From NCBI GenBank assembly GCA_965205365.1, contig CBDBGT010000011.1, positions 347,489 through 411,488 of the forward strand: a stretch of DNA of 64,000 bases, read 5' to 3'. How positions within the stretch are numbered: the stretch's first letter is position 1; every line of letters starts with the position of its first letter. The stretch is from Bdellovibrionales bacterium. GTDB lineage: Bacteria; Bdellovibrionota; Bdellovibrionia; Bdellovibrionales; UBA1609. A model generated the notes under the pieces. It was not told the origin of the DNA, ran no database searches, and saw nothing but the letters and a program-made list of their open reading frames with translations. The translations under genes were made by a program, and so were the position numbers. Of this stretch, positions 2,004 through 62,857 are shown one piece after another.

Positions 2004-2540
2004 GAAAACATTTTAGTGCCTACTCCCACATCTGTAGGGAAAGAAAAAAGGGAAGACTACCACTATAAGCGTAATGGCACCTGTGTTGTTTTGTTAGCCA
2101 TGGAACCTAAAACGGGTAAAAGAATTGTTGAAGTGAGGGAGAGAAGAACAAAAAAAGATTATGCAAGATTCATTGAAAAAGTAATGAAAGAATACAAAGG
2201 TGGAGATAAGTTAACTTTGGTTCAAGATAACCTGAATACTCATAATGCCTCGTCTTTTTATGAAAATTTTTCTCCTAAAAAAGCTTTTAAAATTATGAAA
2301 AAGTTTAATATGGTTTACACTCCTAAAAAAGCGAGTTGGTTGAATATGGCGGAGATAGAATTTTCGGCGCTATCTAAACAATGTTTAGATAGGAGGATTA
2401 AAGATATGAAGACTATGACCAAAGAAGTTGAAGCATGGGGTAAGAAAAGAAATAAGGACAAAGTAAAAATTAATTGGCAATTTACCAAAGAAAAGGCTCG
2501 AAATAAATTTGAAAAGATATACAGAAATATTAAAAATTAG
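2004..2540 (+). pseudogene. IS630-family transposase, C-terminal DDE part
   Basis: YHYKRNGTC, LVQDNLNTHN and ASWLNMAEIEFS motifs; in frame with the upstream part once ISL3 is removed. Confidence 0.75.
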
Positions 2541-2567
2541 TGACACGGTGTACTAGGCTCTTAATAT

Positions 2568-3686: not shown

Positions 3687-3816
3687 ATTAAAAAAACTCA
3701 ACAATCACCCCTAAAGGCTGTCGTCAAAATCAGTGAAAAGTAAAACGACGTACAAAAATTTCATAATATTATGAGATGTTAAAAAAATGGCCAACAAAAG
3801 TTTTATGATGATTTTT

Positions 3817-3930
3817 TAAAGAGACTTGTTTCAAAGTCTCACGTATACCGTAAACTCTTAATTCTAATTGATTTTAATAAAGTATTGGAGCTATTTGAAA
3901 GTTTATATTCTCATACAGGTCTCATATCAA
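3817..3930 (+). pseudogene. Short remnant of an IS5/IS1182-type transposase N-terminal domain
   Basis: The translation LKRLVSKSHVYRKLLILIDFNKVLELFESLYSHTG resembles the LVPxDHxLRKIdxxIDFsFIxxLvxxxYS..GRP motif. No full ORF or ends are present. Confidence 0.3.
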
Positions 3931-4284
3931 GACTGCTCGGCTTTAAGTCTGCTCAGGCTCAACTGGGAAAATTTATATTCATTTTTATCACAGCCTCCTC
4001 TAACTTAATATTTTATAATTCTATTCTTTTTAAGTGCTTCTAAAGGTGAAAATAACTAAAGACTACGCTTTATAGATGGAACTTTAACTTCCTTCTTTTA
4101 ATTTATAAGATAATTTTGTCTCAAAAAAATACAACTAAGGGCCACGCTTTCATGAATAGAAGAAATTCCTTAATATAATTGATATAACTGTATTAATTTG
4201 AAACAATACACTAAAGTCCTAAAATTTTTATCTTTTGTATCCGAAACATATTTAATAACAGAATAAAACTTCCAGGAGAAGGTC

Positions 4285-5769
4285 ATGCTTATGTTAAGTA
4301 AGTTTTTAAACTATTATAAGAAACATTTTATTATCCTTTTATGCCTTGGCTTTTTAATTGTGCAAGTCTTAGATTCACACTGGCTACCCATAAAAGACCT
4401 AACAAAGAATAACCTTAGTCAAAAAGAAAGCCATGAACTTAACATCTTATCTTTAAGCTCCGTAGATCAAAATATTAAACGCTCTACTATTTTAAGCAAT
4501 GCTCAAACTGCAAAAAACAAAAAAAATGAAAGCGCAGTGATTATGAATGATCCTAATATGTCTGAAAAGTGGGGGTTAAAACTTACTAATTCAAAGGCAG
4601 CCTGGAATTTAACAAAAGGTAGTAAAAATACTGTTGTTGCAGTTATTGATACTGGAATTGATGTAAAACATGAAGATCTTCAAGAAAATCTCTGGGTAAA
4701 TAAAGGTGAAACTGGAAAAGACATTAACGGAAAAAATAAACAAACAAACGGTATTGATGATGATAAAAATGGATATATTGATGATACACATGGTTGGAAT
4801 TTTACTTTAAAAAACAATGATCTTACTGATAACCATGGACATGGAACACATATTTCAGGTATTTTAGGCGCTGTTGGTGGCAACGGAAAAGGTGTTAGCG
4901 GAGTATCTCCAAACGTAAGCATCATGACTCTAAAATACTATGACCCAAAATCTCCAAATCTAAACAACTTAGAAAATACTGTTAAATCTATTCACTATGC
5001 CATAGAAAACGGAGCACACATAATAAACTACTCTGGCGGCGGCCTTGACTTTAGTAAAGAAGAAAAACAAGCTATTTCAAAGGCAGAGAAAAAAGGAATT
5101 TTATTTGTTGCCGCTGCTGGTAATGAAAAATCCAATTCTGATAAAAAAAAATATTACCCTGCCGACTATGATCTAAACAATATCATTTCAGTTACAGCTT
5201 TAGACCCTAAGAAAAACATTTTACCTTCAAGTAACTATGGTGTTGTCACTGTTGATATCGGAGCCCCTGGAAAAAACATATACTCCACTCTACCACATAG
5301 TCGATATGGGTATATGACCGGTACATCTCAGGCCACAGCTTTTGTAAGTGGTGTTGCTGCATTGTTAAAAGCTCACAACCCTGATTTCAATGCTAATCAA
5401 ATAGCTAAGTACATAAAAAAAACAGGAGATGTTATTGAGTCATTAAAGGGAAAAACTCGATATCATAGAAAACTAAATTCATATAGAGCTTTAAGTATTT
5501 TAGATCAAAACGTAAGCGCCACTGGAGTTATAGCAGATAATGTCTCGAATCTACCTGACAAATCTTTTTCTGTGGATAAATTTACCTATGAAAATAACAA
5601 AAATAATAAAGTTGCCAATAAAGACTCTATAGTTGATTTTTCAACAAATCTTTTAAAAAAAATTAAAATAGCTAAACGCCAACTTAATTCTAAAAATGAA
5701 CCTCAGCCTCAAAAAAATACTAATTCCCCAATTGACGAGGTTGAAAAAACGCCTTGGCAGCAAAAGTAA
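4285..5769 (+). CDS. Secreted subtilisin-like serine protease (peptidase S8)
   Basis: Catalytic triad motifs VIDTGID, HGTHISG and GTSQATAFVSG; N-terminal hydrophobic signal/anchor; AGGAGA SD before the ATG. Confidence 0.85.
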   Translation: MLMLSKFLNYYKKHFIILLCLGFLIVQVLDSHWLPIKDLTKNNLSQKESHELNILSLSSVDQNIKRSTILSNAQTAKNKKNESAVIMNDPNMSEKWGLKLTNSKAAWNLTKGSKNTVVAVIDTGIDVKHEDLQENLWVNKGETGKDINGKNKQTNGIDDDKNGYIDDTHGWNFTLKNNDLTDNHGHGTHISGILGAVGGNGKGVSGVSPNVSIMTLKYYDPKSPNLNNLENTVKSIHYAIENGAHIINYSGGGLDFSKEEKQAISKAEKKGILFVAAAGNEKSNSDKKKYYPADYDLNNIISVTALDPKKNILPSSNYGVVTVDIGAPGKNIYSTLPHSRYGYMTGTSQATAFVSGVAALLKAHNPDFNANQIAKYIKKTGDVIESLKGKTRYHRKLNSYRALSILDQNVSATGVIADNVSNLPDKSFSVDKFTYENNKNNKVANKDSIVDFSTNLLKKIKIAKRQLNSKNEPQPQKNTNSPIDEVEKTPWQQK

Positions 5770-6478
5770 AAAATATAAGACCTAAACCTAAACCTGCTAT
5801 ATTTTTATTTTGAAACCATAAAGTTCCCATAAGAATCATTAAAATACCTACACACACTATACTTAAAATAATATAAAATGATCTTGTAAACATTTTAAAT
5901 GTTTTAACAGATTCAAAATTCATTCTAGACTCTATATTAAATTCAATTTTCTTTAAAAAACTTTGAGCTAATGCATCATTGGGATTTACGGCTATAAGTC
6001 TTCCATATTTTTCAATAGCAAACTCTAAATTCATTTTCTTTGTACAATACTCTATAAAGTTAAGGTGAACAGCTCTATTCTCATAATCTTTTAAAACCTT
6101 TGACCATTCAAATTCAAAATCTATTTTAAGATTCTTCTCTCCAAGCTCATCAAAACTAGCATTGCCATCTTTTAAAGTTTTAAAATCAAACTCTTGTTGA
6201 AGTTGATTCAATGTTGTTTTTGCATCTATAGCCTCTACTTTCACTGCTTTAGGTAGCTGAACTGTTTTTAACAAAGTTCCAATAATTTCAGACTGTTGCA
6301 AAGCTGCTGATAATGGAATTGAAAACTCTGTCTTACATTTTAAACAAGTATACTCAGGCTCTTCTACATATATTTTTGTAGGATCTGAAGAGTAAGGCTT
6401 TAAACAGTTTGGACATTTAAAATAAATACGACTTAAATCATGGTTTTCATTATTTACATAAAAATCTACATTATTCAA
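5720..6478 (-). CDS. Hypothetical membrane-anchored protein with N-terminal zinc-ribbon-like CxxC pairs
   Basis: CPNC...CLKC pairs near the N-terminus and two C-terminal hydrophobic helices; no family recognised. Confidence 0.4.
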   Translation of the reverse strand: MNNVDFYVNNENHDLSRIYFKCPNCLKPYSSDPTKIYVEEPEYTCLKCKTEFSIPLSAALQQSEIIGTLLKTVQLPKAVKVEAIDAKTTLNQLQQEFDFKTLKDGNASFDELGEKNLKIDFEFEWSKVLKDYENRAVHLNFIEYCTKKMNLEFAIEKYGRLIAVNPNDALAQSFLKKIEFNIESRMNFESVKTFKMFTRSFYIILSIVCVGILMILMGTLWFQNKNIAGLGLGLIFFTFAAKAFFQPRQLGN

Positions 6479-6515
6479 TTGGCCTCCTCTTATTTAGCTG
6501 TCAAACTATACCTAA

Positions 6516-8108
6516 ATGGTAAATACAATAAAAACACATATAAACTTTAACTCACCACTTACTCTTTCAATTTTAACAGGATTTTTTCTAGGCACAAGTA
6601 CAATTCCTTTTCCCCCATGGGCTTTGTTTTTTTGTTTAGCCCCTCTTTTTTATATTTGGATGACAGAAAGTCCTAAAAAAGTTTTTCTCTACACGACTTT
6701 AAGTTTTTTTATTGGCTCAATGATCGGCTTTTATTGGGTGGCTTATCTAATTCAAGAGTTTGCCCATCTTTCATGGCCTTTAAGCGTTTTAATATGTTTA
6801 CTTTTTGCAGTTTTTTGCCATATTCATATCTCTCTTATGGGGTTTATCTTTGCAAAATGGATTCGTCAGCTTGCAAGTCAAAAACTACTTTCAGCAGCAG
6901 CTCTTTTTGCTTTTTTATGGTCTGTATTCCCTCTCCTATTTCCCTGGAACTTTAGTCTAGGGTGGATTTATGGAGGCCTTCAAGGGTATCAGTTTGCAGA
7001 TATTATCGGTTCAGATGGAATAAGTGGCCTCACTATCTTTTTAAATGCTTTTTTTCTTTTTAGCTTTTTGAAACTTAAAACAACAAAACTTCCTATGATA
7101 GCAAACATTTCTTTCATTATTCTTTTTAATTTTGCAGGCAGCCTATATATTAAAAATCTTCCAAAACCTGACTCAATCTATAACGTAGTTATAGGTCAAG
7201 CTAATATTGGAAACCTTGAAAAACAAATCATGCTAAACCGATACAATTACAAATCAAAAATTATTGATAACTACTTTAAGGTTACACAACTGGGACTTAA
7301 TAAATCAAAAAAGAAAGCTAACTTAATTGTCTGGCCTGAAACTGCATTTCCAGAATATTATAATCACAGATTCTTTCAAACCCCTAATACTAAAAGACTT
7401 ATAAAGTTTATTAGAAAAAACAAGGTCAACCTTATTACAGGAATTTTTGCACGAACTCCTAATAACAAAACTGCCAATGCTGTCTTATTTTTAGACAAAA
7501 CAGGAGCTCCCTCCTCTACTCCCGTGTACAAAAAAATTCTTTTAGCCTTTGGCGAATATATGCCTTTTGAAAAAACATTTCCTTTTTTAAGAAAATGGTT
7601 TCCCATGGTTGGTGATTTTCAAAGAGGAAAATCACCTCAAGTTCGAAGCCTTAATGAGGTTAATATTGGTGTACAGATATGCTATGAAGGTTTGCACCCT
7701 TGGTTTAGTCGTGAACTTGTAGACAAAGGTTCTCAAATCATAATCAACCTCACAAATGATTCCTGGTACGGTCCTTATTCTGAACCCTGGCAACATATGT
7801 ACTCAAGTGCTTTTAGGGTTATTGAAAACCGTCAGCCACTTATAAGAGCTACAAACACAGGTATTTCCACTGTTATCCTCTCTGATGGAACATTTTTAGA
7901 AAAATCACCTCTTTATGCTCAATGGGGAGGCTTTTATGAAGTCCCCTATTCCTCTAAACCCAAAAAAACCATTTACCAAAAATGGGGCTATGCAATTTCT
8001 TTGCCCCTTATTATAATTCTGTTTATTATCTCACTAGCGTATAGAAAACAAGAGGGGAAAGATAAGCTTGAGACAGTCACCTCAGAAGACCCAAATAGAA
8101 ACCACTGA
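6516..8108 (+). CDS. lnt: Apolipoprotein N-acyltransferase
   Basis: Polytopic N-terminus plus a CN-hydrolase domain with the IVWPETAF and VQICYEG motifs. Confidence 0.85.
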   Translation: MVNTIKTHINFNSPLTLSILTGFFLGTSTIPFPPWALFFCLAPLFYIWMTESPKKVFLYTTLSFFIGSMIGFYWVAYLIQEFAHLSWPLSVLICLLFAVFCHIHISLMGFIFAKWIRQLASQKLLSAAALFAFLWSVFPLLFPWNFSLGWIYGGLQGYQFADIIGSDGISGLTIFLNAFFLFSFLKLKTTKLPMIANISFIILFNFAGSLYIKNLPKPDSIYNVVIGQANIGNLEKQIMLNRYNYKSKIIDNYFKVTQLGLNKSKKKANLIVWPETAFPEYYNHRFFQTPNTKRLIKFIRKNKVNLITGIFARTPNNKTANAVLFLDKTGAPSSTPVYKKILLAFGEYMPFEKTFPFLRKWFPMVGDFQRGKSPQVRSLNEVNIGVQICYEGLHPWFSRELVDKGSQIIINLTNDSWYGPYSEPWQHMYSSAFRVIENRQPLIRATNTGISTVILSDGTFLEKSPLYAQWGGFYEVPYSSKPKKTIYQKWGYAISLPLIIILFIISLAYRKQEGKDKLETVTSEDPNRNH

Positions 8109-50388: not shown

Positions 50389-50465
50389 TGGCGGGGTGGA
50401 CGGGACTCGAACCCGCGGCCTCCGCCGTGACAGGGCGGCGTTATAACCAACTTAACTACCACCCC
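50389..50465 (-). tRNA. tRNA-Asp (anticodon GUC), encoded CCA
   Basis: The reverse complement is ggggtggtagttaagttggttataacgccgccCTGTCACggcggaggccgcgggttcgagtcccgtccaccccgcca. It has a canonical cloverleaf. Confidence 0.9.
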
Positions 50466-50656: not shown

Positions 50657-52129
50657 CTATAAAAATGGCTCCTTTATCAAAGCCTTAAATAAGTATCTAT
50701 AAGACTTAAGTAGATTATAATCTGATTTTTTAAGAGCTTTTTTAAAGGATTTTTCCACAGGATTTCGCCTCTTTCCATTGACCTTAAATACTCCCACACC
50801 TCCTCCAGCTATTAAGCCAGCGCCTACAGCTGTAGTTTCAATATTTTTAGAGCGCATAAGCTTTAACGATGAAAGCTTAGCCTGAACCTCCATAAAAATA
50901 TCCGACATAGAAGCTCCTCCATCAATATAAACTCTTTTTAGTTTTTTTGAAACATCCTGCTCCATAGCTTCAAAAATCAATGTATTTTGAAAAGACAAAC
51001 CTTCTAATAAAGCCCTTGCCATATGAGATGCTTTTGTACCCCTTGTAAGCCCTAAAAAAGCACCCTTAGACTCTGGTGACCAGTAAGGCGCTCCTACTCC
51101 AGAAAAAGTAGGCGCAAACTTAACTCCTTGTGAAGTCTGAGCACTTAAAGCTAATTTTCCAATATCAGCAGCTTTCTTTAAAACACCCAATTCATCTACA
51201 AACCAATTGATACAAGAACCACAATTAAAGGCCCCACCCTCTAAAGCATAAACAGGTTTTTGACCTTTAAGCCTCCAGGCTACAGTAGTCAACAAACCTG
51301 ACTTTGAATAAACCAATTTATTTCCTGTGTTTAAAAGAATAAAGCTACCCGTTCCAAAGGTACACTTCACATCCCCCTCTTTAACCCCGTACTGCCCAAA
51401 AAGAGCAGCCTGCTGATCACCTAAAATACCTGTTATAGGGGTTCCATCTACCAAAGGTGCAAAGTTTTTAATGGAACCAAAATTAGAATCTGAATTGACC
51501 ACCTTTGCAAGAATATTTTCTGAAATATTAAAGTATTTTAAAAGATCTTTATCCCATTTTTGAGTTTTAATATTAAATAACTGAGTACGTGATGCATTAC
51601 TAGGTTCTGTATAAAAACTTTTTCCTCCAGTAAGATTCCAGAGTAAAAAAGTATCTATAGTTCCAACCATTAAATTTTTAGCTTTTGATTTATTATTTTT
51701 TAAAAACCATTCTATTTTCGTAGATGAAAAATACGGATCAACACTCAATCCTGTTTTTTTCTTAATCCAATTTCCATCACTTTTTTTAATCTCTTCAGTT
51801 CTTAAACTTGTTCTCCTACACTGCCAAACAATGGCGTTTCCAAAAGCTTTCCCTGTCTTAGAGTTCCAAAAAACAACAGTTTCTCTCTGATTTGTAATTC
51901 CTATTGTAAGAACATCTTTAGGATTCTTATTTGTTTTCTTAAACACCTTTTGAATAGCTTTTTTAACACTGTTTAAAATGTCTTCAGGGTTGTGTTCAAC
52001 CCATCCAATTTTTGGAAAAATTTGCTTAAAAGCAACATTGCTTAAACCAAGCACTTCCCCCTTTGTGTTCATAATCAAAGCCGTAGAGCCCGTAGTCCCC
52101 TGGTCTAAAGAAAGTATTAGGTTTTTCAT
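50657..52129 (-). CDS. glpK: Glycerol kinase
   Basis: FGGY-family motifs LDQGTTGST, GITNQRET and GDQQAALFGQ; 490 aa. Confidence 0.9.
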   Translation of the reverse strand: MKNLILSLDQGTTGSTALIMNTKGEVLGLSNVAFKQIFPKIGWVEHNPEDILNSVKKAIQKVFKKTNKNPKDVLTIGITNQRETVVFWNSKTGKAFGNAIVWQCRRTSLRTEEIKKSDGNWIKKKTGLSVDPYFSSTKIEWFLKNNKSKAKNLMVGTIDTFLLWNLTGGKSFYTEPSNASRTQLFNIKTQKWDKDLLKYFNISENILAKVVNSDSNFGSIKNFAPLVDGTPITGILGDQQAALFGQYGVKEGDVKCTFGTGSFILLNTGNKLVYSKSGLLTTVAWRLKGQKPVYALEGGAFNCGSCINWFVDELGVLKKAADIGKLALSAQTSQGVKFAPTFSGVGAPYWSPESKGAFLGLTRGTKASHMARALLEGLSFQNTLIFEAMEQDVSKKLKRVYIDGGASMSDIFMEVQAKLSSLKLMRSKNIETTAVGAGLIAGGGVGVFKVNGKRRNPVEKSFKKALKKSDYNLLKSYRYLFKALIKEPFL

Positions 52130-52330
52130 ATGTTTTTTAAGTCTACTCGCCTGGAGTGTCTAAGGCAATAGGGCCTGTTAATCCATGGATTAACTTTGTC
52201 AAAACACCTGCATTCTCTAAATCATCAATGCTTCCCCCTATAAGCTCTGATTTCATAATACTTGCCATAAAAACAGCCAAAATCATCAACAAAATATACT
52301 CTAAAACCAACTGACCACTCTGCTTTCCTC
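52028..52330. repeat. Left copy of a perfect 303-bp direct duplication flanking the DGR-bearing element
   Basis: Identical by eye to 61994-62296. It covers glpK codons 1-34, the glpK/flp spacer and 188 nt of the flp-like gene, and ends exactly at the IS terminus. Confidence 0.9.
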
Positions 52331-52355
52331 CTGACTTCGACACAACACGGCGCAT
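52143..52355 (-). CDS. Flp-type pilin-like gene, chimeric copy (5' end supplied by the IS-derived element)
   Basis: The C-terminal 62 codons are identical to the copy at 62109-62333. The first 8 codons (MRRVVSKS) read out of the 153-bp mini-IS. The G/QLVLEY (G/XXXXEY) motif is retained. Confidence 0.4.
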   Translation of the reverse strand: MRRVVSKSGGKQSGQLVLEYILLMILAVFMASIMKSELIGGSIDDLENAGVLTKLIHGLTGPIALDTPGE

Positions 52356-52483
52356 AAAGCTAATAAAATCAAGTGCTTAGATTTTGCTGGGGTCACTACA
52401 TTTCGAGTTTTAGACTTTTTAACCTTCTCTGGTGCGTATATTTGAACTCAAGAGGGGCTTTTTAACAGGAGTGTCGAAGTCAG
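52331..52483 (-). mobile_element. 153-bp transposase-less derivative (MITE-like) of the IS1634-family element, inverted relative to the full copy
   Basis: 52331-52393 is the reverse complement of 61920-61992. 52379-52483 is the reverse complement of 60129-60223. The two parts join at a single copy of the 15-nt aaatgtagtgacccc. Termini are ctgacttcgacac / gtgtcgaagtcag. Confidence 0.85.
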
Positions 52484-54465
52484 GAGCTTAGAAAATATTT
52501 TATCATTTTTTTAAATAATTAAAGAGTTTAGACCTTAATTTTCCTACTGTTTTTGTATCAAAATAAGAAAAAAACATTTCTTTAAAAACACTAAGTTAAA
52601 AATAAAGCTAAAAACCCACACTTATTACGCCTTAATATTAAATTAAGAAAAACACTTAATTTCCTTTAGTTTTTAAGCCCTTTATCCGATACATAGAGTA
52701 TAAAATATAAGAATTTATATAGGATATAACATGAAAGCTTTAACTTTATTTACAGTTTTATTATGGACGTTTTCTTCCTTGGCTGTGCCAAGTTCTTTTG
52801 TCTTTCAAGGTCAAATTATAAAGCCCAATGGAGAAGCCCTAGAAGACAATAATGTTAACTTTATTCTTAAAATCCTATCTCCCCTAAACCACTGCCTCCT
52901 CTATGAAGAAACCTTCACCCTTAATATGACAGACTCAAAGGGAGTGTTTAACCTAAGTGTAGGGTCTGGCACAACCACAGGAAATGGTGGCTTAACAAGT
53001 TTATCTAAAGCCCTAGACAATTCCTTAAACAACATCACAGGGCTTAACTGTGACTCTGGTTCCTCATACAGTCCAAGCCTCACTGACACAAGAAAACTTA
53101 GAATGACTTTTGATGACGGCAGTGGCCCCCTTACTCTAACAAATGACCACACAATTGAAAGTGTGCCCTATGCTCAGTACGCTCATAAACTTGGCGGAAA
53201 AACACTTCATGACTTTATTCAAGTCAACAGTGGTGTGACACAAAGTAATTTAGAAACTGTGTTTGATAACGGTGTAAACCAAAGAGAGCTTATGGCTTTA
53301 ATTGAGGGCCGTTCTAACCAATACTCTCCATTAAGCACTAGTGGAGCTAGTTCTTTACCGAGCTTTTCAAATCCTCCCCTTAACTCTAAGGCAGGAGATG
53401 TTTGGTACAACTCTACAACCAATGAAATCATGTACCACAATGGATCAGTAAACACCGTTGTTGGCCAAGGGAGTGGAACTGTGACCAGTATCACCACAGG
53501 AAGTGGTCTAAGTGGTGGAATCATTACAAATAGCGGTACAATTTCAATTGCCACAGGGGGTGTATTAAACAGTCACCTTCAAGGTGGTATCCATGGAAGT
53601 AAAATCACAGGAGGAGTTTTACCAGCCTCAGTGGTTCCAACAGGAACTGATGATACAAAGCTTTCTCTTCAAGGGGGAAGTTTATTAGGTGATCTTAACC
53701 TTAATGGAAATGAGGTTTTAAACACAGGTCATATTATGCAAAACCCGAGGAGTACAATGACCCTAGGTTCTTATGGGAATTTAGAAGAGGCTAGTCTTTT
53801 AGGTTCTTTGAGTGCGGGGAATGCTGGAGCCACTTGGTACAATAGTGATTCTAGGGTGCTTAAGTACTGGGACGGTAGTGGTGTAGAAGTGTTAACCACA
53901 GTGAGTGTAGGTGTATCAAGTGTTTTAGTGAGTCCCCCGTTAACTTCTTCAGGTGGTAATGATCCAAGAATAGGCATAAGCCTTGGTAGGGGTTTATACA
54001 ACAAGAGTGGAAGTGTGGAGATAGATTTAGACTCTCTTAGTGGTTTAGACTTTAATGGAAATAGGTTAAGAGTAAAAGCAGGAAGTGGTATAAGACTAAC
54101 AGGAAGTGGTATAGAGGCAGATACGGGAACGAGTTTAGGTCAGTTAATGAGAGTAGACAGTCTTCCTGTGTGCACAAGTGGGGAAAAGATTCAAAGAAAC
54201 TCTGGAGCCACAGTGACTTATTCTTGTGTGGCTGATGTAGATGAAGACACAAGTCTTTTAGGAAAATCAGCAGGAGGAGACCTTAGTGGAACTTATCCAA
54301 ACCCCATTTTAACATCAACAGGGGTGAGTGAGGGAATTTATTCAAAAGTTAGAGTGGACACTAAGGGAAGGGTAAGAGAGGGTTTAAGTTTGGACTTCCC
54401 CAAATATAGTAGACAGATTAGGAAGTTCCTATGTAGCCCTAAAAGAGGCTGAAAGGGATGAGAAA

Positions 54466-54762
54466 ATGTCAGAGAAAAGAAAACATAAACACTATAACAA
54501 AGAATTCAAAATAGAAGCTGTAAAATTAGCTGAGACAGTTGGAGTAATGAAGGCTGCTGCTGAACTAGGTGTAGCAAAAAAATCTATTCAAAACTGGATA
54601 AATGGGATCTATATGGGTGGAGCTCAATGTAAAAAGTCAAAAATGGCCGAAATGGAAGCTGAGCTTAGAAGGATTAAAAAAGAAAACAAAAACCTAAAGT
54701 TAATCAATGATGTTCTAAAAAAAAGCACTGCGATATTCTCCAAAGACCAAATTGGAGATTAG
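54466..54762 (+). CDS. IS3-family transposase OrfA (HTH)
   Basis: HYNKEFKIEAVKLA...; helix-turn-helix plus leucine-zipper-like C-terminus. Confidence 0.85.
   Translation: MSEKRKHKHYNKEFKIEAVKLAETVGVMKAAAELGVAKKSIQNWINGIYMGGAQCKKSKMAEMEAELRRIKKENKNLKLINDVLKKSTAIFSKDQIGD
54717..54723 (+). promoter_or_regulatory. A_AAA_AAA -1 programmed frameshift site for the OrfAB fusion
   Basis: Zero-frame codons are cta aaa aaa agc. The -1 frame is open from here into orfB (...KKKHCDILQRPNWRLEMILK...). Confidence 0.6.
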
Positions 54763-54764
54763 AG

Positions 54765-55634
54765 ATGATTTTAAAGTTAAAAAATCAAATGAGTGTGAAG
54801 TTTTTAGCAGAGCACTTTGGGTTGTCTAGACCTTCTTTTTATAAATGGTTGAAGCTTAGGAGTAAGTCCACATCTGGTTTGAACTCTAAAACTGAAATCT
54901 GTAAAGAGATCAGATCTATTTTTAGATCTTCAAAGCAAACTTATGGATCCCCTAGAATTTACGCTGAACTCAAAACTAAAGAGGTTTTCATCAGTGAAAA
55001 CACTGTGGCTAAATACATGGGTGAGATGGGCTTAAATGCAAGATTGAAGAAAAAATATAGAGTGATGACTACAGATTCAAACCACGCCCATGCCATAGCC
55101 CCCAGACTTTTTAAAACTGAAGATGAGCACTGTCTTCCAACAAAGCCAGGGACTGTTTTAGCTGGTGACATCACTTATTTGAAGCTCTCAAAGCACAACC
55201 ATGTCTACCTTGCTGTGGTTTTAGACCTGTACAACAGAGAAGTTGTGGGTTGGTCTATGAGCCTCTCGCTGGACACTAGAGTTGTTATGGATGCCCTCCA
55301 CGGAGCCATTAAAAAGACGAATCCAGATGCAGAGGTGATCTTCCACTCTGACCGTGGTGTGCAGTACGCGTCTGACGCGTATAGAAAGTTTTTGAGAAAC
55401 CAGAAGATCAAGCCATCAATGAGCAGAAAAGGAAATTGTTATGACAATGCTTATGTGGAGAGTTTTTTTAGTTCACTTAAGAAAGAATGGGTGTACAGAC
55501 AAAATCCTGAAACTGAAGATGCTATGAAGGCCTGTGTCTTCAATTATATTGAAGCTTGGTACAATGCAAAAAGACGACACTCATCACTTGATTATATGAG
55601 TCCATTAGATTACAGAATTAAACAACAAAAATGA
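54765..55634 (+). CDS. IS3-family transposase OrfB (DDE integrase core)
   Basis: GDITYL, HSDRGVQYAS and YDNAYVESFF (the D, D, E motifs); the stop lies in the right IR. Confidence 0.9.
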   Translation: MILKLKNQMSVKFLAEHFGLSRPSFYKWLKLRSKSTSGLNSKTEICKEIRSIFRSSKQTYGSPRIYAELKTKEVFISENTVAKYMGEMGLNARLKKKYRVMTTDSNHAHAIAPRLFKTEDEHCLPTKPGTVLAGDITYLKLSKHNHVYLAVVLDLYNREVVGWSMSLSLDTRVVMDALHGAIKKTNPDAEVIFHSDRGVQYASDAYRKFLRNQKIKPSMSRKGNCYDNAYVESFFSSLKKEWVYRQNPETEDAMKACVFNYIEAWYNAKRRHSSLDYMSPLDYRIKQQK

Positions 55635-55656
55635 ACTTCCTAATCTGTCTACTTTT

Positions 55657-57759
55657 TTGGGGAAGTCCAGTTTAGTAGAAAGTGATATACCAAATTTAAG
55701 TGGAAGTAAAATCACTTCAGGAACCATTGATACAAATAGATTAAACACAGGAACAGGGAGCAATGACCTTGTTAAGCTTGATGGTTTATCAAGGTTACCT
55801 AGTGTAGATGGGAGTCAGCTTATAAACTTACCAAGTAGTGCTGACAATATGGGAAATGGTGAGGCTCAAGAGAATATACATCTTAATGGAAATTATTTAA
55901 GTGGAGACGGTGATAATGAGGGAATTAGTGTAGATGCATTAGGAAGGGTTGGAGTGGGTAAAAGGAATCCTCAAGCATTATTAGATGTTTCTGGAAAAGT
56001 AAGGGTAGAAGAGATTTGTGATGAAAGAGGTGGAAACTGTAAGGATGTGTCAACAGGTTGGGATAGAGGGAGTGTAGGAGCAAACCAAGTGACCAACGTT
56101 CCTTTTGGAAATGTTTTAGGCACAGATGTTCAGACTGCTATTAATGAGCTTGATTCTAAAAAAGTTCCAATAACTAGAGAAATTGCAACAGTTTTAAATA
56201 GTGGATTAAGTGGAGGAGGGGATTTATCCACCAACAAGAATTTAAGTGTGGATATTCATGGAACTGTAGAAGAGAGTACAGTGAGTGATTTAGACAGTGT
56301 TTTAATCCACGATGTATCCCAAAATAGTTTAAAAAAAATAACACAGTCAAATTTTTTAAATGATTATTTTAAAGGATCTTTAGGAACCAGTTTAGGTGAT
56401 GCAATGGATGCTGGAGGTGTGCCTAGTTGTGGAGTGGATGAGAAGCTTAGAATGAGTCAAGGCCCTGTTTATTTATGGTCATGTGTGGTGGATGAGGACA
56501 CAAGTCTTTTAGGAAAATCAGCAGGAGGAGACCTTAGGGGAACTTATCCAAACCCGACTTTAGCATCAACAGGGGTGAGTGAGGGAATCTACTTAAAAGT
56601 TAGAGTGGACACTAAGGGAAGAGTAACAGAGGGTTTAAGTTTATCAGAAAGTGATATACCAAATTTAAGTGGAAGTAAAATCACTTCAGGAACCATTGAT
56701 ACAAATAGATTAAACACAGGAACAGGGAGTAATGACCTTGTTAAGCTTGATGGTTTATCAAGGTTACCAAGGGTAGATGGGAGTCAGCTTACAAACTTAC
56801 CAAGTAGTGCTGACAATATGGGAAATGGTGAGGCTCAAGAGAATATACATCTTAATGGAAATTATTTAAGTGGAGATGGTGATAATGAGGGAATTAGTGT
56901 AAACAGTGATGGTGATGTTTTTGCTTCTAGAAATATTGCTGCTGTGGGGTCTATTAGTGGATCTAGTGTTGTACTTTCAAATGGAATAAAAATAGGAACA
57001 GAGGAAACAACTTGCAATACTTTAAACGAGGGGACTTTAAGGTATAGTGAAAAGAAAATGGAATTTTGTAATGGAAACGTGTGGAGTGTTTTAGGTGTTG
57101 ATGATCCATGTCTTGATTCTTCCCCCTTGCCAGGTGCTGTGTGTAAAGGTGGAGCAATTTATCTTGGAAGCCTTAGCCCAGGTGCTACCAGTGGTAGTGG
57201 AACAGATCACTACATGACCACCCCTGGGGGTTGTGGGGACATTCCATCAGGAAGTGTTTCAGGGGGCTCGGGGTCAAATTCTTATGCATTAAATGATTTT
57301 ACAGTGACTTGTTCTGGTACTGATAGTTTATTTAAAGATTGGAATAATAATACAAGTAATTGGTATAATATTCCAGGGCTAGCAAATTACACATCAACTT
57401 GGGGAATTGGTCATGGTGAAAGTAACATAGATTTAAATTACGGTTCAGCGAATACAGATGTAATTGTTGCCATTACTTTAGAGTCTCAAGGGGGCTATCA
57501 TGCCGCAGCAAGGTATTGTCATAAGCTTGTTTATGGTGGTTATGATGATTGGCATTTACCTAACCGCTATGAGCTTAATTTAATGTACACAAATCGTTCT
57601 GCTCTTCCAGGTTTAAATCAGAGTAGTGTTAGTGGTTATTATTGGTCGTCTACGGAGAGCAGTATTCACAGTGCGTGGATCCAGCGGTTTTCTGATGGCT
57701 ATCAGTATTACGGCAATAAGCTCCATTCTCGACTTGTTCGTTGTGTACGGAGGTTTTGA
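55657..57759 (+). CDS. VR-bearing C-terminal fragment of the DGR target (DUF1566/CLec-type C-terminal domain)
   Basis: The open frame starts at a TTG inside the IS3 right IR. The C-terminus reads ...YHAAARYCHKLVYGGYDDWHLPNRYELNLMY...YWSSTESSIHSAWIQRFSDGYQYYGNKLHSRLVRCVRRF. Confidence 0.7.
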   Translation: MGKSSLVESDIPNLSGSKITSGTIDTNRLNTGTGSNDLVKLDGLSRLPSVDGSQLINLPSSADNMGNGEAQENIHLNGNYLSGDGDNEGISVDALGRVGVGKRNPQALLDVSGKVRVEEICDERGGNCKDVSTGWDRGSVGANQVTNVPFGNVLGTDVQTAINELDSKKVPITREIATVLNSGLSGGGDLSTNKNLSVDIHGTVEESTVSDLDSVLIHDVSQNSLKKITQSNFLNDYFKGSLGTSLGDAMDAGGVPSCGVDEKLRMSQGPVYLWSCVVDEDTSLLGKSAGGDLRGTYPNPTLASTGVSEGIYLKVRVDTKGRVTEGLSLSESDIPNLSGSKITSGTIDTNRLNTGTGSNDLVKLDGLSRLPRVDGSQLTNLPSSADNMGNGEAQENIHLNGNYLSGDGDNEGISVNSDGDVFASRNIAAVGSISGSSVVLSNGIKIGTEETTCNTLNEGTLRYSEKKMEFCNGNVWSVLGVDDPCLDSSPLPGAVCKGGAIYLGSLSPGATSGSGTDHYMTTPGGCGDIPSGSVSGGSGSNSYALNDFTVTCSGTDSLFKDWNNNTSNWYNIPGLANYTSTWGIGHGESNIDLNYGSANTDVIVAITLESQGGYHAAARYCHKLVYGGYDDWHLPNRYELNLMYTNRSALPGLNQSSVSGYYWSSTESSIHSAWIQRFSDGYQYYGNKLHSRLVRCVRRF
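56489..56901 (+). repeat. Copy B of the ~414-bp intragenic direct repeat
   Basis: See copy A; I counted about 18 mismatches over ~414 nt. Confidence 0.8.
57642..57751 (+). repeat. DGR variable region (VR)
   Basis: Gap-free 110-nt alignment with TR. There are 13 mismatches, all at TR adenines. The VR lies in the last 39 codons of the target ORF. Confidence 0.9.
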
Positions 57760-57800
57760 GGCCTGAAAGGGCTCATTAGCTCTTTAGCCCTTTAGTTCTT

Positions 57801-57835
57801 TTATCTTAAGGAGGCTTTAAGCCTCCTTAAGATAA
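57801..57835 (+). terminator. Perfect 16-bp-stem hairpin 42 nt downstream of the target stop codon
   Basis: ttatcttaaggaggct-tta-agcctccttaagataa. There is no clear T-tract, so it could be a terminator or the DGR target-site hairpin/cruciform. Confidence 0.45.
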
Positions 57836-57895
57836 AATTATTTAATTTTAGAGACGCGTTGAGTAAATTAAAAATTATTTACATAGCGATACTTT

Positions 57896-58303
57896 ATGAT
57901 AAAGAAAGCTGTGGCAAAATATAAACATTTACCAATTTATAAATTAACTTATGAGCTTTTAGGCAGAGTGATAAGGGTAGTGAAAAAATTCCCCAGAGAT
58001 CATAAACATACTTTAGGTGAAAAAATTAAAGTCGAAATTATAGAAATTGTAGTTTTAGTTTATAGAGCAAATGCTTCACACAGTCGAGTATTAATTATTG
58101 AAAAATTAATTGAAAGTTTAGAAGTTGTGGGTTTATTAATGCGTGCTAGTTATGACCTTAGAATCATTTCACAAAAAGATTATGCTAGTCTTATAGAAAT
58201 GACGGAGTCTATAGGTCGCCAAGCAATGGGCTGGAAAAAATCTGAATTTAAAAAAGAAGGAAAAAACTTAACTGGGGGAGGTAGCCAGAGTTATTTATCT
58301 TAA
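57896..58303 (+). CDS. avd: DGR accessory variability determinant (Avd), four-helix-bundle family
   Basis: 135 aa and helical, with a basic C-terminus. HLPIYKLTYELLGRVIRVVKKFPRDHKHTLGEKI resembles the Avd / 23S-rRNA-IVS protein family. It lies between VR and TR. Confidence 0.8.
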   Translation: MIKKAVAKYKHLPIYKLTYELLGRVIRVVKKFPRDHKHTLGEKIKVEIIEIVVLVYRANASHSRVLIIEKLIESLEVVGLLMRASYDLRIISQKDYASLIEMTESIGRQAMGWKKSEFKKEGKNLTGGGSQSYLS

Positions 58304-58483
58304 GGGATAAGTAAGTGAGTGACTTTCATCTCGGGATAGACACGGTTGGAATTTATTTTCACCCTATATCTTTGATCAATTGTTAAAATTATTCATTGAC
58401 CCCATTAGTGTGTCTTTTATAAGGGGTATTTTTGGGATAAGCAGTTGTCTATCGCAAACTCGATGTTTGCCATGAGTCCTTGC

Positions 58484-58593
58484 TTGGTCGTCTACGGAGA
58501 ACAATAATAACAATGCGTGGATCCAGCGGTTTTCTGATGGCAATCAGAATAACAACAATAAGAACAATTCTCGACTTGTTCGTTGTGTACGGA
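58484..58593 (+). repeat. DGR template repeat (TR)
   Basis: Non-coding copy of VR with 35 adenines. In the VR frame it reads WSSTENNNNNAWIQRFSDGNQNNNNKNNSRLVRCVR (12 AAY codons). Confidence 0.9.
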
Positions 58594-58647
58594 AGTGAAG
58601 CCTCCTCCAGTTTTTTTTATGAATTTTAATATAAAGGTGAAAACTTT

Positions 58648-59781
58648 GTGTCAAATATGGAATTAAGTTTTGAAGAAGTAGTTAAGGCTTACTTTAATTG
58701 TCGAAAAAACAAAAGAAATACAGTTCATCAGCTAACGTATGAATTTTGTTTAGAACAAGAATTATTTGATCTTTATCAAGATCTTAAAAAAGGCACCTAT
58801 AAAATTGGACCAAGTGTAGCTTTTGTTGTGGATCAACCAAAGGTTCGAGAGATTTGGGCTGCAACTTTTAGAGACAGAGTTGTTCATCACATTATTTATA
58901 ATCGTTTGTCATCGAGTTATTATAAGAGGTTTATTAGAAACTCTTTTGCATGTATTCCAGGAAGAGGAACTCTTGATGGATCAAACCGGTTGATGAAGGG
59001 TATGCAGTCAATTACTAAGAATTGGCAGAAGCCCGCTTACTTTTTGTCAGCAGACATTAGAAATTTTTTTGTATCAATTAATAAAAATATTTTATGGAAC
59101 ATTCTAAGTCCAAATATTCAAGAAGAATGGTTAAGAGATTTAACTCATCAGGTTTTATTTCATGATCCAAGACTAGGTTGTATTAAGAAATCTAATGATT
59201 TTGCTTTTGCAAGAGTTCCTAAATATAAAAGCCTTTGGAACTGTTGTAAGAATAAAGGCTTGCCCATAGGTAATCTAACGAGCCAGTTTTTTGCAAATGT
59301 TTATCTTAATGAACTTGATCAATTTTTTGTTCATCACAAAGGTTTTGGAAAATATTATTTTCGTTATGTAGATGATTTTATTATTTTAAATGAATCTGTG
59401 AACCAGCTAAATGAAATGCATAAAGAAGCTGGATTTTTTCTTAAAGAAAAATTAGATTTGGATTTACATCCTTATAAAAAACAAATTGGGCTAGTTGCTC
59501 AAGGTGTTTATTTTGTTGGTTATGTTAACAAACCTTATAGAAGATATGTTAGAAAAAGAACAATAAATAAGGCAATGAGTGTTACTCGTCAGTGGAAAAA
59601 ATCGCTACACCCGTATTCAGAAGAATCTTTAAAAAAGCTACGAGGATCAATAAATGCATATATGGGAATTATGAAATGGGCACATAGCTACAAGGAACGT
59701 AAAAAACTTGTTCAAAAAACTACGAATCTTTATGTAAGACCTGAAAATGAAAATTATTTAAAGATTAAGATTTTTTGCTGA
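58648..59781 (+). CDS. DGR reverse transcriptase
   Basis: RT motifs LSADIRNFF, LPIGNLTSQFFANVYL (the DGR-type [IL]GxxxSQ motif), YFRYVDDFIIL and GVYFVGY. It starts 55 nt after TR. GTG start with an AAAGGTGA SD; an alternative ATG lies at 58657. Confidence 0.9.
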   Translation: MSNMELSFEEVVKAYFNCRKNKRNTVHQLTYEFCLEQELFDLYQDLKKGTYKIGPSVAFVVDQPKVREIWAATFRDRVVHHIIYNRLSSSYYKRFIRNSFACIPGRGTLDGSNRLMKGMQSITKNWQKPAYFLSADIRNFFVSINKNILWNILSPNIQEEWLRDLTHQVLFHDPRLGCIKKSNDFAFARVPKYKSLWNCCKNKGLPIGNLTSQFFANVYLNELDQFFVHHKGFGKYYFRYVDDFIILNESVNQLNEMHKEAGFFLKEKLDLDLHPYKKQIGLVAQGVYFVGYVNKPYRRYVRKRTINKAMSVTRQWKKSLHPYSEESLKKLRGSINAYMGIMKWAHSYKERKKLVQKTTNLYVRPENENYLKIKIFC

Positions 59782-59789
59782 TGTTACGC

Positions 59790-60128
59790 ACCTAGGCTTA
59801 AATAAAGGAGAGTTCCTAAGCTTCACTATGACCCCAGGAAACGTTCATGATACAAAGCCTTTAGAGAATCTTGCAGATGGTTTGTTTGGAAAGCGGAGAT
59901 AAGGGATATATCTTAAAAGAACCTCTTTAAAAAACTTATGGGCAAAGGTGTTTAAGTTGATTACTCATTTAAAATCAAATATGAAAAATAAGTTTGTACC
60001 ACTTTTTCATAAACTTTTACTGAGAAAAAGATATATTGTTGAGACTGTTTTTAGAATTTTAAAGGAAGAGTTTCATATTGAACACTCAAGACACCAAAGT
60101 CTTAAAAAACTTTATAGTGAATCTTTTC
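59790..60128 (+). pseudogene. IS982-family transposase C-terminal remnant (frameshifted, truncated by the IS1634-family element)
   Basis: FTMTPGNVHD..., GDKGYI (in another frame), LITHLKSNMKNK and LLLRKRYIVETVFRILKEEFHIEHSRH. It needs at least two frame changes and has no ends. Confidence 0.5.
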
Positions 60129-61992
60129 CTGACTTCGACACTCCTGTTAAAAAGCCCCTCTTGAGTTCAAATATACGCACCAGAGAAGGTTAAAAAGTCT
60201 AAAACTCGAAATGTAGTGACCCCTTTTTTTTCTTTACAAGTATTTTTAGGCTAGTAATTTTAATAGCCATGTTTATTCGAGAAGTAAAAAAACCAAACGG
60301 AAGTGTTTCAATTAGAATAGTTGAATCTACTCGAGTAAAAAATAAAGTTATTCAAAAAGTCATTAGAACTCTGGGACAACACAAGGATGCAAGAGAAATA
60401 GCCATTATTAAGAAAGCAGCACAGGACTTAATAATAGAGCTAAAAAACACAAGAAACCCAGCCCTTCCTGGAATGGAAGAAACTGTGCACTCCACGACTT
60501 GCACAAAAAAAGCCAGCACAAGAAACCCAGAGCTAGTGGATATAAAGAATCTATCTGAGCAAGGTCGTGTTAACCAAGGCATTCACACAGTTTTAGGCAA
60601 AGTTTATAATCAAATGAACTTTAACGATATCATAAAAAACACAAAAAAAGATGATGAGTGGAACTCTATTCTTCAAGATTGTGTTTTAGCAAGAATCTCT
60701 AGGCCGCAGAGTAAAAGAAAAACAGCAGATAGCTTAAAAAAAGTTTTCTCAAAACCCCTTCCTCTTCATAAGATATACCGTATGATGGACAGAGTTTTTC
60801 TAAACGAAGAAAGACTAAAATCAAAAGTCTTAAATTCCACTCTAAACCTTTTTAATGACCAGGTTGACGTTATGTTCTTTGATGTCACAACGCTATATTT
60901 TGAAAGCTTTACTTCAGATGAACTTAGAGCCAATGGTTTTAGTAAGGATGCTAAGTTTAAAGAAACTCAAGTTGTTCTCGCCTTGGTTACAAACTCACAG
61001 GGACACCCAGTAACTTATGAGCTTTTTCCTGGCAACACTTATGAGGGCAACACATTAATAGAGATAGTTAAAAACTTAAAAACCCGTTTTAATGTAAATC
61101 AAGTTACCCTTGTGGCTGATAGAGGTATGTTTAATGAGGCAAACTTAGTTTTACTAGAAGCTGAAAACATTCATTATATTGTGGGGGCTAAGTTAAAATC
61201 TTTACCAAAGAATTTAAAAGAAGAAATCTGTCATAAAAACTTTAAACCCCATGTGGTGAGCAATGAACTGCAGTGGGTTAGAGAGTTTGAGCACAAGAAA
61301 AGAAGGCTTGTTGTTGGGTATTCTAATAAAAGAGCTTATAAAGATGCATTTGACCGGGAAAAGATAATTGTTCGTCTTTTAAAGAAAGCCAAAGATGGAA
61401 AACTTAAAGCAAGTGACCTTATAACTAATTATGGAACGAAAAAGTACCTTAAGTCTTTTAAGGGGGATGTAGAGGTTGATAAGTGTAAGATTAGTAGAGA
61501 CGCTCAGTGGGATGGTTTTCATGGTGTCATTACAAATCTTGAAGACAAGTCTGCAGCTGAAGTTTTAGAGCGTTATAGAGGGCTGTGGAAAATAGAACAA
61601 GCGTTTAGAATAAGTAAGACAGATTTAAAGATGCGACCTATTTTTCATTGGAAGTCTGAGAGGATTAAGGCTCATATTGGAATTTGTTTTCTAGCATATG
61701 CAATTGTTTGTAGAGTAAATAAGCTTATTAAGGAAAACCAATTAGAGTTTAGTTTTTTAGATCTTAAAGAGGAGTTAAATAGAGATGAGTACAGTGTTTT
61801 AAAAGACTCTAGTACGGGGCGATTTTATGAGCTTGTATCTAAGACTACTCCTGTTTTAAAGAAAATTTACCAAGTTTTAAACCTTAAGAGAAAGGACTGT
61901 ATTCGCCTAGTTAAAGAGCAAATGTAGTGACCCCAGCAAAATCTAAGCACTTGATTTTATTAGCTTTATGCGCCGTGTTGTGTCGAAGTCAG
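60129..61992 (+). mobile_element. IS1634-family insertion sequence (1864 bp)
   Basis: Terminal IRs are ctgacttcgacac (60129-) and gtgtcgaagtcag (-61992). A single 552-aa transposase gene is present. An internal 15-nt direct repeat aaatgtagtgacccc lies at 60209-60223 and 61920-61934. Confidence 0.8.
60269..61927 (+). CDS. IS1634-family (IS4-related) DDE transposase
   Basis: N-terminus MFIREVKKPNGSVSIRIVESTRVKNKVIQKVIRTLG; DDE motifs FFDVTTLYFES, LVADRGMF and YRGLWKIEQAFRISK. Confidence 0.75.
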   Translation: MFIREVKKPNGSVSIRIVESTRVKNKVIQKVIRTLGQHKDAREIAIIKKAAQDLIIELKNTRNPALPGMEETVHSTTCTKKASTRNPELVDIKNLSEQGRVNQGIHTVLGKVYNQMNFNDIIKNTKKDDEWNSILQDCVLARISRPQSKRKTADSLKKVFSKPLPLHKIYRMMDRVFLNEERLKSKVLNSTLNLFNDQVDVMFFDVTTLYFESFTSDELRANGFSKDAKFKETQVVLALVTNSQGHPVTYELFPGNTYEGNTLIEIVKNLKTRFNVNQVTLVADRGMFNEANLVLLEAENIHYIVGAKLKSLPKNLKEEICHKNFKPHVVSNELQWVREFEHKKRRLVVGYSNKRAYKDAFDREKIIVRLLKKAKDGKLKASDLITNYGTKKYLKSFKGDVEVDKCKISRDAQWDGFHGVITNLEDKSAAEVLERYRGLWKIEQAFRISKTDLKMRPIFHWKSERIKAHIGICFLAYAIVCRVNKLIKENQLEFSFLDLKEELNRDEYSVLKDSSTGRFYELVSKTTPVLKKIYQVLNLKRKDCIRLVKEQM

Positions 61993-61993
61993 G

Positions 61994-62095
61994 AAAAGCA
62001 ACATTGCTTAAACCAAGCACTTCCCCCTTTGTGTTCATAATCAAAGCCGTAGAGCCCGTAGTCCCCTGGTCTAAAGAAAGTATTAGGTTTTTCAT
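61994..62095 (-). pseudogene. Duplicated 5' fragment of glpK (codons 1-34)
   Basis: Part of the 303-bp duplication. It reads MKNLILSLDQGTTGSTALIMNTKGEVLGLSNVAF, then runs into the IS end. Confidence 0.85.
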
Positions 62096-62296
62096 ATGTT
62101 TTTTAAGTCTACTCGCCTGGAGTGTCTAAGGCAATAGGGCCTGTTAATCCATGGATTAACTTTGTCAAAACACCTGCATTCTCTAAATCATCAATGCTTC
62201 CCCCTATAAGCTCTGATTTCATAATACTTGCCATAAAAACAGCCAAAATCATCAACAAAATATACTCTAAAACCAACTGACCACTCTGCTTTCCTC
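61994..62296. repeat. Right copy of the perfect 303-bp direct duplication
   Basis: Identical by eye to 52028-52330 and begins exactly at the IS terminus. Confidence 0.9.
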
Positions 62297-62333
62297 TACC
62301 CTTATTCTTTTTGCTTTGACCCCTTAAAAACAT
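62109..62333 (-). CDS. Flp-family (type IVb/Tad) pilin-like small protein, intact copy
   Basis: MFLRGQSKKNKGRGKQSG|QLVLEYILLMILAVF: a basic leader, the G/XXXXEY processing motif and a hydrophobic helix. The track ORF extends to 62396, but the Met at 62333 is more plausible. Confidence 0.45.
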   Translation of the reverse strand: MFLRGQSKKNKGRGKQSGQLVLEYILLMILAVFMASIMKSELIGGSIDDLENAGVLTKLIHGLTGPIALDTPGE

Positions 62334-62350
62334 AAGAATAGTCTTACCCT

Positions 62351-62857
62351 GTGAAAATATACGACTGGAAGTACCTTGGTAAAATTGTTGCATCAATTGC
62401 CCTATCGGTCATTATTGGTCTTTTCTGGATATTAACTACTCAAAAAAACCCTGAAATCACAAAAAACCCTCATAAATTCAACTTAGGTAGTGTTTTTGCT
62501 AAACACCTTACAAATAGAACTCTAGTAATTTTTTGGGCTAGCTGGTGTGCCTCTTGTCAAGAGGACCTTAAAAAACTTAAAAAATTTCAAGCTTCTAATT
62601 TACCAAAAGATTTTAGTATTCTAGCTATTAACATTGATACCATGGAAAAATTACCTGAAGCAAAATTTCTATGGAATAAGCTAGAAATTAAAGACATTAA
62701 ACTTTTATTTGATAAAAACGGAGACTATCAAAATCTCTTATCTATTAACGTTCTACCCTCTTACTTCTTATTTGAAAAAAATGGAAAAATCCTTTTAAGG
62801 CTAGATGGAAAAGTAGACTTTTCAGATAAAAAAATACTCTCTCTCCTATTTAGTTAA
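62351..62857 (+). CDS. TlpA/redoxin-like membrane-anchored thiol:disulfide oxidoreductase
   Basis: N-terminal TM and a thioredoxin fold with FWASWCASCQ (CxxC). GTG start. Confidence 0.7.
   Translation: MKIYDWKYLGKIVASIALSVIIGLFWILTTQKNPEITKNPHKFNLGSVFAKHLTNRTLVIFWASWCASCQEDLKKLKKFQASNLPKDFSILAINIDTMEKLPEAKFLWNKLEIKDIKLLFDKNGDYQNLLSINVLPSYFLFEKNGKILLRLDGKVDFSDKKILSLLFS

Follow-up and report, generated by a model that had tools for sequence, protein, structure and literature searches.

Insertion sequences of the IS1634 family, which was split from the IS4 family, are tabulated by length and by the terminal pattern C-----YT (PMC2266710, Table 1), and two of them, IS1634 and IS1549, generate long and variable target duplications of 8–514 bp, for which the literature up to the 2008 family review offered no mechanistic model (PMC2266710). 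Short relatives of the family have been described in Methanosarcina, where MITEs of 247–249 bp occur in 15–23 copies and are listed with 0–6-bp repeats (PMC3852290, Table 4). Type I MITEs are internal-deletion derivatives, and composites bounded by MITEs are documented (PMC6382973). The formation of MITEs through deletion between microhomologies is likewise documented, in the eukaryotic Tc1/mariner system of Ozma, with microhomologies of 6–8 bp (PMC3814204), and MITE-armed composite structures have been described more than once (PMC6382973, PMC13367494). IS1634-family MITEs, deletion at short repeats, MITE-armed composites and long duplications are all already known, and the pair of elements reported here is an unusually clean instance of this ordinary process, set apart by its new lineage and its unusual cargo.

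Here, we analyzed a 64,000-nt stretch of DNA (hereafter, the window; G+C 32.7%) from an uncultured Bdellovibrionales-like bacterium, in which a mini element and a full-length insertion sequence (IS) bracket a cargo next to the glycerol kinase gene. The features that bear on this arrangement are as follows:

50657–52129, reverse strand: glycerol kinase gene (glpK), intact
52028–52329: left copy of the 302-bp target-site duplication, comprising the start of glpK and the sequence upstream of it, with the 3′ part of the 95-aa ORF
52330–61993: unit read as a composite transposon (9664 bp; mini element, cargo and full IS), with a target duplication and an empty site in relatives
52330–52484, reverse strand (inverted relative to the full IS): mini element (155 bp), 100% identity in both arms, terminal 14-mer at each end
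52330–52388: within the mini element, the IS right arm (61935–61993)
52389–52403: sole 15-mer copy of the mini element
52404–52484: within the mini element, the IS left arm (60128–60208)
60128–61993, forward strand: full-length IS1634-family IS (1866 bp), 14-bp perfect terminal inverted repeats CCTGACTTCGACAC
60209–60223, forward strand: 15-mer AAATGTAGTGACCCC, left copy, 81 nt in from the left terminus; the ATG (60269) follows 46 nt downstream
60269–61927, forward strand: transposase ORF, 552 aa, DDE type, IS1634 family (NF033559; PF01609)
61920–61934, forward strand: right copy of the 15-mer, containing the TAG stop (61925–61927), 59 nt inside the right terminus
61994–62295: right copy of the 302-bp target-site duplication, with a truncated glpK start (first 34 codons, 61994–62095)
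62109–62396: 95-aa ORF, intact

The family assignment of the full-length IS follows from its transposase, which scored 357 bits against the NCBIfam model of the IS1634 family (NF033559; cut-off of 100, residues 28–540) and carries the Pfam domain DDE_Tnp_1 (PF01609). Its length of 1866 bp and its termini (CCTGACTT..., perfect over 14 bp) fit the 1500–2000 bp and the C-----YT pattern of the family. Compared by published features, it resembles IS1634 and IS1549 in its transposase, its size in the 1.5–2-kb range and its termini, and long, perfect duplications like those of IS1634 and IS1549 (8–514 bp) flank its relatives (18–743 bp, variable in length) and the composite (302 bp). Unlike these elements, its host is an uncultured Bdellovibrionales-like bacterium, its long duplication surrounds a 9.66-kb composite rather than a single IS, and its transposase is at most 57% identical to anything that a protein search retrieved outside its own 90%-identity cluster. 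The named relatives come from Bacteriovoracaceae and Oligoflexia MAGs, and the nearest genome loci from Bdellovibrionales MAGs. The cluster itself comprises seven variants (six besides the one in the window) that are 99–100% identical where aligned, two of them truncated to 484 and 393 aa. Since the search records place cluster variants on several large contigs, the IS is present in multiple copies in the source assembly; the protein records for the transposase and GlpK list contigs of about 560, 526, 800, 404 and 22 kb. Target duplications in the family are either of 5–6 bp or long and variable; the full-length IS taken singly lacks one, the 302-bp duplication belonging to the composite.

Exact comparison within the window revealed how the mini element relates to this IS. 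Positions 52389–52485 are 100% complementary to 60127–60223 over 97 nt, and positions 52329–52403 are 100% complementary to 61920–61994 over 75 nt; what the two matches have in common is precisely the 15-mer, present in reverse complement at 52389–52403. The mini element is thus composed, in reverse complement, of the left 81 nt of the IS, one copy of AAATGTAGTGACCCC and the right 59 nt of the IS, at 100% identity throughout, and the 35-nt sequence across its junction reads CTAAAACTCGAAATGTAGTGACCCCAGCAAAATCT. The 15-mer occurs only three times in the 64-kb window (60209 and 61920 on the forward strand, 52389 on the reverse strand), and the terminal 14-mer CCTGACTTCGACAC occurs four times, at both ends of the mini element and of the IS, against 0.08 expected by chance. 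A repeat search of the IS identified the 15-mer as its longest direct repeat, and when the IS was simulated 2000 times under a first-order Markov model, about 1% of the simulations contained a repeat of at least 15 nt.

These comparisons uphold the initial annotation where it described the mini element as the two IS ends joined at a single 15-mer, with both arms identical to those of the adjacent full-length IS and with the 15-mer present twice in the IS, at the edges of the ORF, the second copy spanning the stop codon. The alignment, which by the terms set out beforehand could have refuted this reading, placed the junction inside the 15-mer and derived both ends from the same IS. The boundaries had to be amended: when the termini of the IS and the mini element are set by the family-typical pattern CC[CT]GA...TC[AG]GG, the earlier limits (52331–52483 and 153 bp for the mini element; 1864 bp for the IS) prove one base short at each end, giving the corrected lengths of 155 bp and 1866 bp.

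The resulting element has the structural features of a type I MITE, being 155 bp long, within the range of about 50–600 bp for such elements, containing no ORF within it, sharing its ends with a co-resident IS, and having an interior that can be derived from that parent by a deletion, here of 1711 bp. A folding prediction revealed pairing of its terminal inverted repeats and nothing more. Like the Methanosarcina MITEs derived from the IS1634-family elements ISMba11 and ISMac10, it is short, lacks a transposase and bears IS1634-family ends; unlike them, it is found as a single 155-bp copy without a duplication of its own, while its exact parent and its junction are both visible. It also resembles the mosquito (Aedes) elements Gnome, Elf and Goblin, which derive from Ozma, in that parent and derivative share one genome and the junction falls in a short direct repeat, although here the element is a bacterial IS1634-family IS, the repeat is 15 bp, and the repeat corresponds to a conserved motif (see below). 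Parent and derivative lie 7.6 kb apart and are 100% identical, and the position of the deletion junction can therefore be resolved to a single base, as is seldom possible for bacterial MITEs. The observations on the mini element rest on one copy in the 64-kb window. Further copies were sought by exact matching, in GTDB species genomes with the 28 nt of the left end and in JGI metagenomes and IMG/VR with a 29-nt pattern of motif plus right arm; all of these scans returned zero matches, and a repeat search of the window found no target duplication flanking the mini element itself.

We consider it very probable, given these sequence relationships, that the mini element is a non-autonomous deletion derivative of an IS1634-family IS of the adjacent type and that the composite moved via its outer ends into its position beside glpK. 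One IS copy would have lost 1711 bp between its direct copies of AAATGTAGTGACCCC, most likely because replication slipped, independently of RecA, or a repair event switched templates at the longest direct repeat available. The product would retain both termini, both subterminal arms and one motif copy, and would lack the transposase gene. This derivative, or its full-length precursor, is inverted relative to the intact IS and together with it brackets the diversity-generating retroelement (DGR). The transposase would have used the two outer right-end sequences and inserted the unit of 9.66 kb in the region that directly precedes glpK, giving the 302-bp target duplication, long as is typical of the family. 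Three parts of this account are inferred, namely slippage as the mechanism, whether deletion preceded transposition, and whatever role the motif may play; the deletion could also have occurred in place, after insertion of a composite with two full-length arms, and gap repair initiated by the transposase could substitute for slippage, with the same pattern expected. Mobilization of the mini element in trans by the transposase is an unproven candidate reading for this single copy without its own duplication.

The polarity of the change was considered as well. Direct repeats around the ORF segment are formally the pattern left by an insertion with target duplication, so that the mini element might be ancestral and the ORF segment a later arrival that duplicated the 15-mer as its target site. 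We regard this as extremely improbable, since the second repeat includes the stop codon of the ORF, the inner segment lacks termini that would mark it as a separate element, and the mini element is 100% identical to a present-day IS copy. In addition, the arrangement of left arm, motif, ORF, motif and right arm recurs across many phyla, in relatives with as little as 33% protein identity, and is therefore ancestral. The polarity thus favored is loss of the ORF from a full-length IS.

At the level of the whole unit, the perfect direct repeat 52028–52330 = 61994–62296 abuts the outer termini of the mini element and of the full IS. Under the terminus rule the target duplication is 302 bp (52028–52329 = 61994–62295) and runs A...T. 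The two outer ends form a perfect inverted repeat, with the right arm and the motif on each side (75 nt as extended, 74 nt within the corrected termini), and both are thus right-end sequences. As in composite transposons, two IS-derived arms surround a cargo and the duplication surrounds the whole unit, not the single arms. Here, the duplication contains the start of glpK and the 3′ part of the small ORF. Owing to this length, both disrupted neighbors were left with a complete copy: glpK is intact on one side of the unit and the 95-aa ORF on the other, and each adjoins a truncated copy of the other gene. An Rfam scan identified only a tRNA, just downstream of glpK (50392–50465, reverse strand, 71.5 bits).

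The window GlpK is 74–86% identical to GlpK of Bdellovibrionales MAGs, and these genomes provide the empty site. In two loci from other species (L088 and L089; GlpK 86% and 74% identical, respectively), a redoxin gene, the small ORF and glpK are contiguous. With 52330–62295 (the unit and one repeat copy) removed, the window and L088 could be aligned colinearly over 1038 nt (82% identity), and neither junction showed a gap. The alignment indicates that the 302-bp segment was ancestrally single-copy and that the 9.66-kb unit is an insertion.

Long duplications of this kind recurred among the relatives. In a comparison set of 80 related loci from species-representative genomes, 21 related elements had perfect target duplications that abut the termini to the base (18–743 bp, median 144), found at loci L002, L004, L005, L011, L013, L017, L018, L034, L035 and L037, and further at L040, L044, L045, L056, L058, L059, L064, L065, L069 and L082. 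The first base of the duplication was A in 19 of the 21 and the last base was T in 20, a pattern suggesting that both ends attach to the target beside an A, irrespective of how far apart the two joining sites lie.

Some of these loci showed additional rearrangements. In L002, a Bdellovibrionales MAG, a related IS has entered an older, truncated copy 22 bp from the end of that copy (remnant 5374–5507), and its terminal 20-mer occurs three times because the 551-bp duplication (2338–2888 = 4846–5396) includes the terminus of the older copy. The same locus holds a perfect 8-bp microsatellite, ATCGTTTT, in about 25 copies upstream of a gene (497–696). In L045, the Limibacterium fermenti chromosome, the IS lies within a 2.8-kb direct repeat (2143–4966 = 4569–7392). 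Over-long units between flanking repeats, or an IS-containing direct repeat, were seen in L045, L010, L019, L036, L009 and L029, and may be tandem or composite.

The 302-bp direct repeat, the 21 related elements with perfect A...T duplications and the uninterrupted site in related Bdellovibrionales together establish, at the level of sequence, that the unit of mini element, cargo and IS is a real composite transposon. The duplication and the uninterrupted site also bear out the earlier proposal that the mini element serves as one arm of a composite. An assembly artefact, in which a full IS had been collapsed at the 15-mer or the 302-bp segment spuriously doubled, would be compatible with the 100% identity of all repeats in the assembled sequence. 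Such an error is nevertheless very unlikely, given that a 15-nt repeat is below any usual assembly word size, that the duplication meets the element termini with single-base precision and follows the A...T rule of the family, that the combination of an element and a long perfect duplication recurs in 21 independent assemblies, and that glpK lies on a 560-kb contig, which suggests a long-read assembly. A genuine composite is not without parallel: the Acinetobacter MITE-flanked integrons, MITE-297 and the TIME-COMPs likewise use a miniature IS derivative as an arm of a cargo-carrying composite. Unlike those MITE-bounded composites, this one has the mini element as one arm and the autonomous parent as the other, the duplication is 302 bp, and the cargo is a DGR rather than a resistance gene. 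The example illustrates that a unit of about 10 kb can apparently be moved by an IS1634-family transposase with a 302-bp duplication.

We further examined whether the 15-mer has counterparts elsewhere in the family, by searching relatives with defined ends for the longest word common to the 5′ untranslated arm and the 3′ end. Most related elements (L002–L082) contain two directly oriented copies of a conserved motif, the first preceding the ORF and the second at the stop codon or shortly behind it, with the consensus (A)TGT(A/G)GTG(A/C)CC and, in Bacteroidota-type relatives, the near-palindrome GGGTGACNCA. The shared words and their distances from the left and right termini were as follows:

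Bdellovibrionales: TGTGTGGCAC, 110 and 60 nt
Gammaproteobacterium MAG (L017/L018): TGTAGTGCCTA, 98 and 68 nt
Aminiphilus: TGTAGTGCCT, 119 and 59 nt
Betaproteobacterium: GTAGTGCC, 69 and 69 nt
Bacteroidota and Campylobacterota: GGGTGAC(G/C)CA, with lineage-specific extensions up to 18 nt, about 77 and about 14 nt

Shuffle tests of the shared word gave p ≤ 0.05 in 11 of 18 elements, and the motif block could be aligned in all nine right arms examined. Several relatives have the stop codon inside the right motif copy, as does the window IS, and the left site of Bacteroidota-type elements consists of two inverted copies. By eye, TTGACA-like hexamers follow the motif in L017 and L037. A promoter scan of the left arm of the window IS returned no consensus promoter, and a placement of its left motif just upstream of a −35 box was accordingly dropped.

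The two motif copies of one element co-vary, agreeing with each other beyond the common core, as would be expected of a site that co-evolves with a binding protein, the binding being something that we infer. The 15-mer is evidently the local form of a conserved motif, not a chance microhomology. We propose, tentatively, that it is one of two co-evolving subterminal sites and that, together with the symmetric ends and the A...T rule, it offers a handle on the long duplications of the family; the sequence patterns hint at this reading, to which we give distinctly less than even credence. If it is true, the combination of right-end/right-end termini, a 302-bp duplication and ends that join the target independently would be a clue to how long and variable duplications arise. 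If the transposase binds the motif, the mini element would be a natural minimal substrate, with two termini and one site. The motif pair goes without mention in the IS1634 and MITE literature cited here, and both it and the A...T rule are more novel leads than the mini element itself, as well as cheap and testable ones.

A conserved motif at the deletion junction raises the question of whether the deletion was promoted by a protein, either the transposase or a host factor, that recognizes the motif; in that case the two copies would serve as favored places for recombination or template switching, and the family would shed its ORF there repeatedly. In line with such a role, the motif is kept at both positions in distant relatives, its copies co-vary in each element, and the mini element retains exactly one motif at the normal distance from both termini. 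Other IS1634-type mini elements speak against it, since their junctions lie elsewhere. A gapped scan from terminal inverted repeat to terminal inverted repeat retrieved five loci (L083–L087), of which L084 and L085 were rejected as unrelated long hairpins. L083 (24–188) and L087 (19–183), on two JGI metagenome contigs, share a 165-bp mini element (Bacteroidota-type, IS1634 family) in which both motif copies remain and GGGTGTCCCAG occurs several times, and L086 (2–154; a JGI metagenome contig) contains a 153-bp mini element with two right-type ends. The junction is not in the motif in any of these elements, and no mini element deleted at the motif was found among the 80 related loci. Moreover, 15 identical bases suffice for spontaneous deletion in bacteria. 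We therefore judge protein-promoted deletion to be unlikely, and favor slippage or template switching between the two motif copies as the origin of the mini element.

The cargo between the two arms comprises the following features:

54399–55662, forward strand: IS3-family element (rve domain; NF033516, 303 bits), 30-nt inverted ends
55657–59781, forward strand: diversity-generating retroelement
55657–57759: DGR target gene, Lcl_C domain, with the variable region (VR) at 57642–57754
57896–58303: DGR Avd (bAvd/DivGenRetAVD)
58484–58596: DGR template repeat (TR)
58648–59781: DGR reverse transcriptase (RVT_1)
59948–60127, forward strand: IS982-family transposase gene fragment (C-terminal), cut by the left end of the IS1634-family IS and also truncated upstream

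The DGR assignment rests on the presence of a reverse transcriptase, an Avd and a TR/VR pair that differs only at template adenines (14 of 14 differences). A literature search found no description of a DGR as the cargo of an IS-bounded composite transposon, and the locus provides an example, from a lineage of predatory bacteria, of a DGR that can be carried along by a transposon. The IS3-family element, for which a target duplication was not obvious, splits a large repeat-containing surface-protein gene into two parts (52731–54452 and 55657–57759), the downstream of which retains the DGR variable region. The surface-protein gene also has an internal tandem duplication, with repeats at 54237–54391 and 56488–56642 and at 55669–55932 and 56638–56901. 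The IS982 fragment beside the DGR reflects a layered insertion history.
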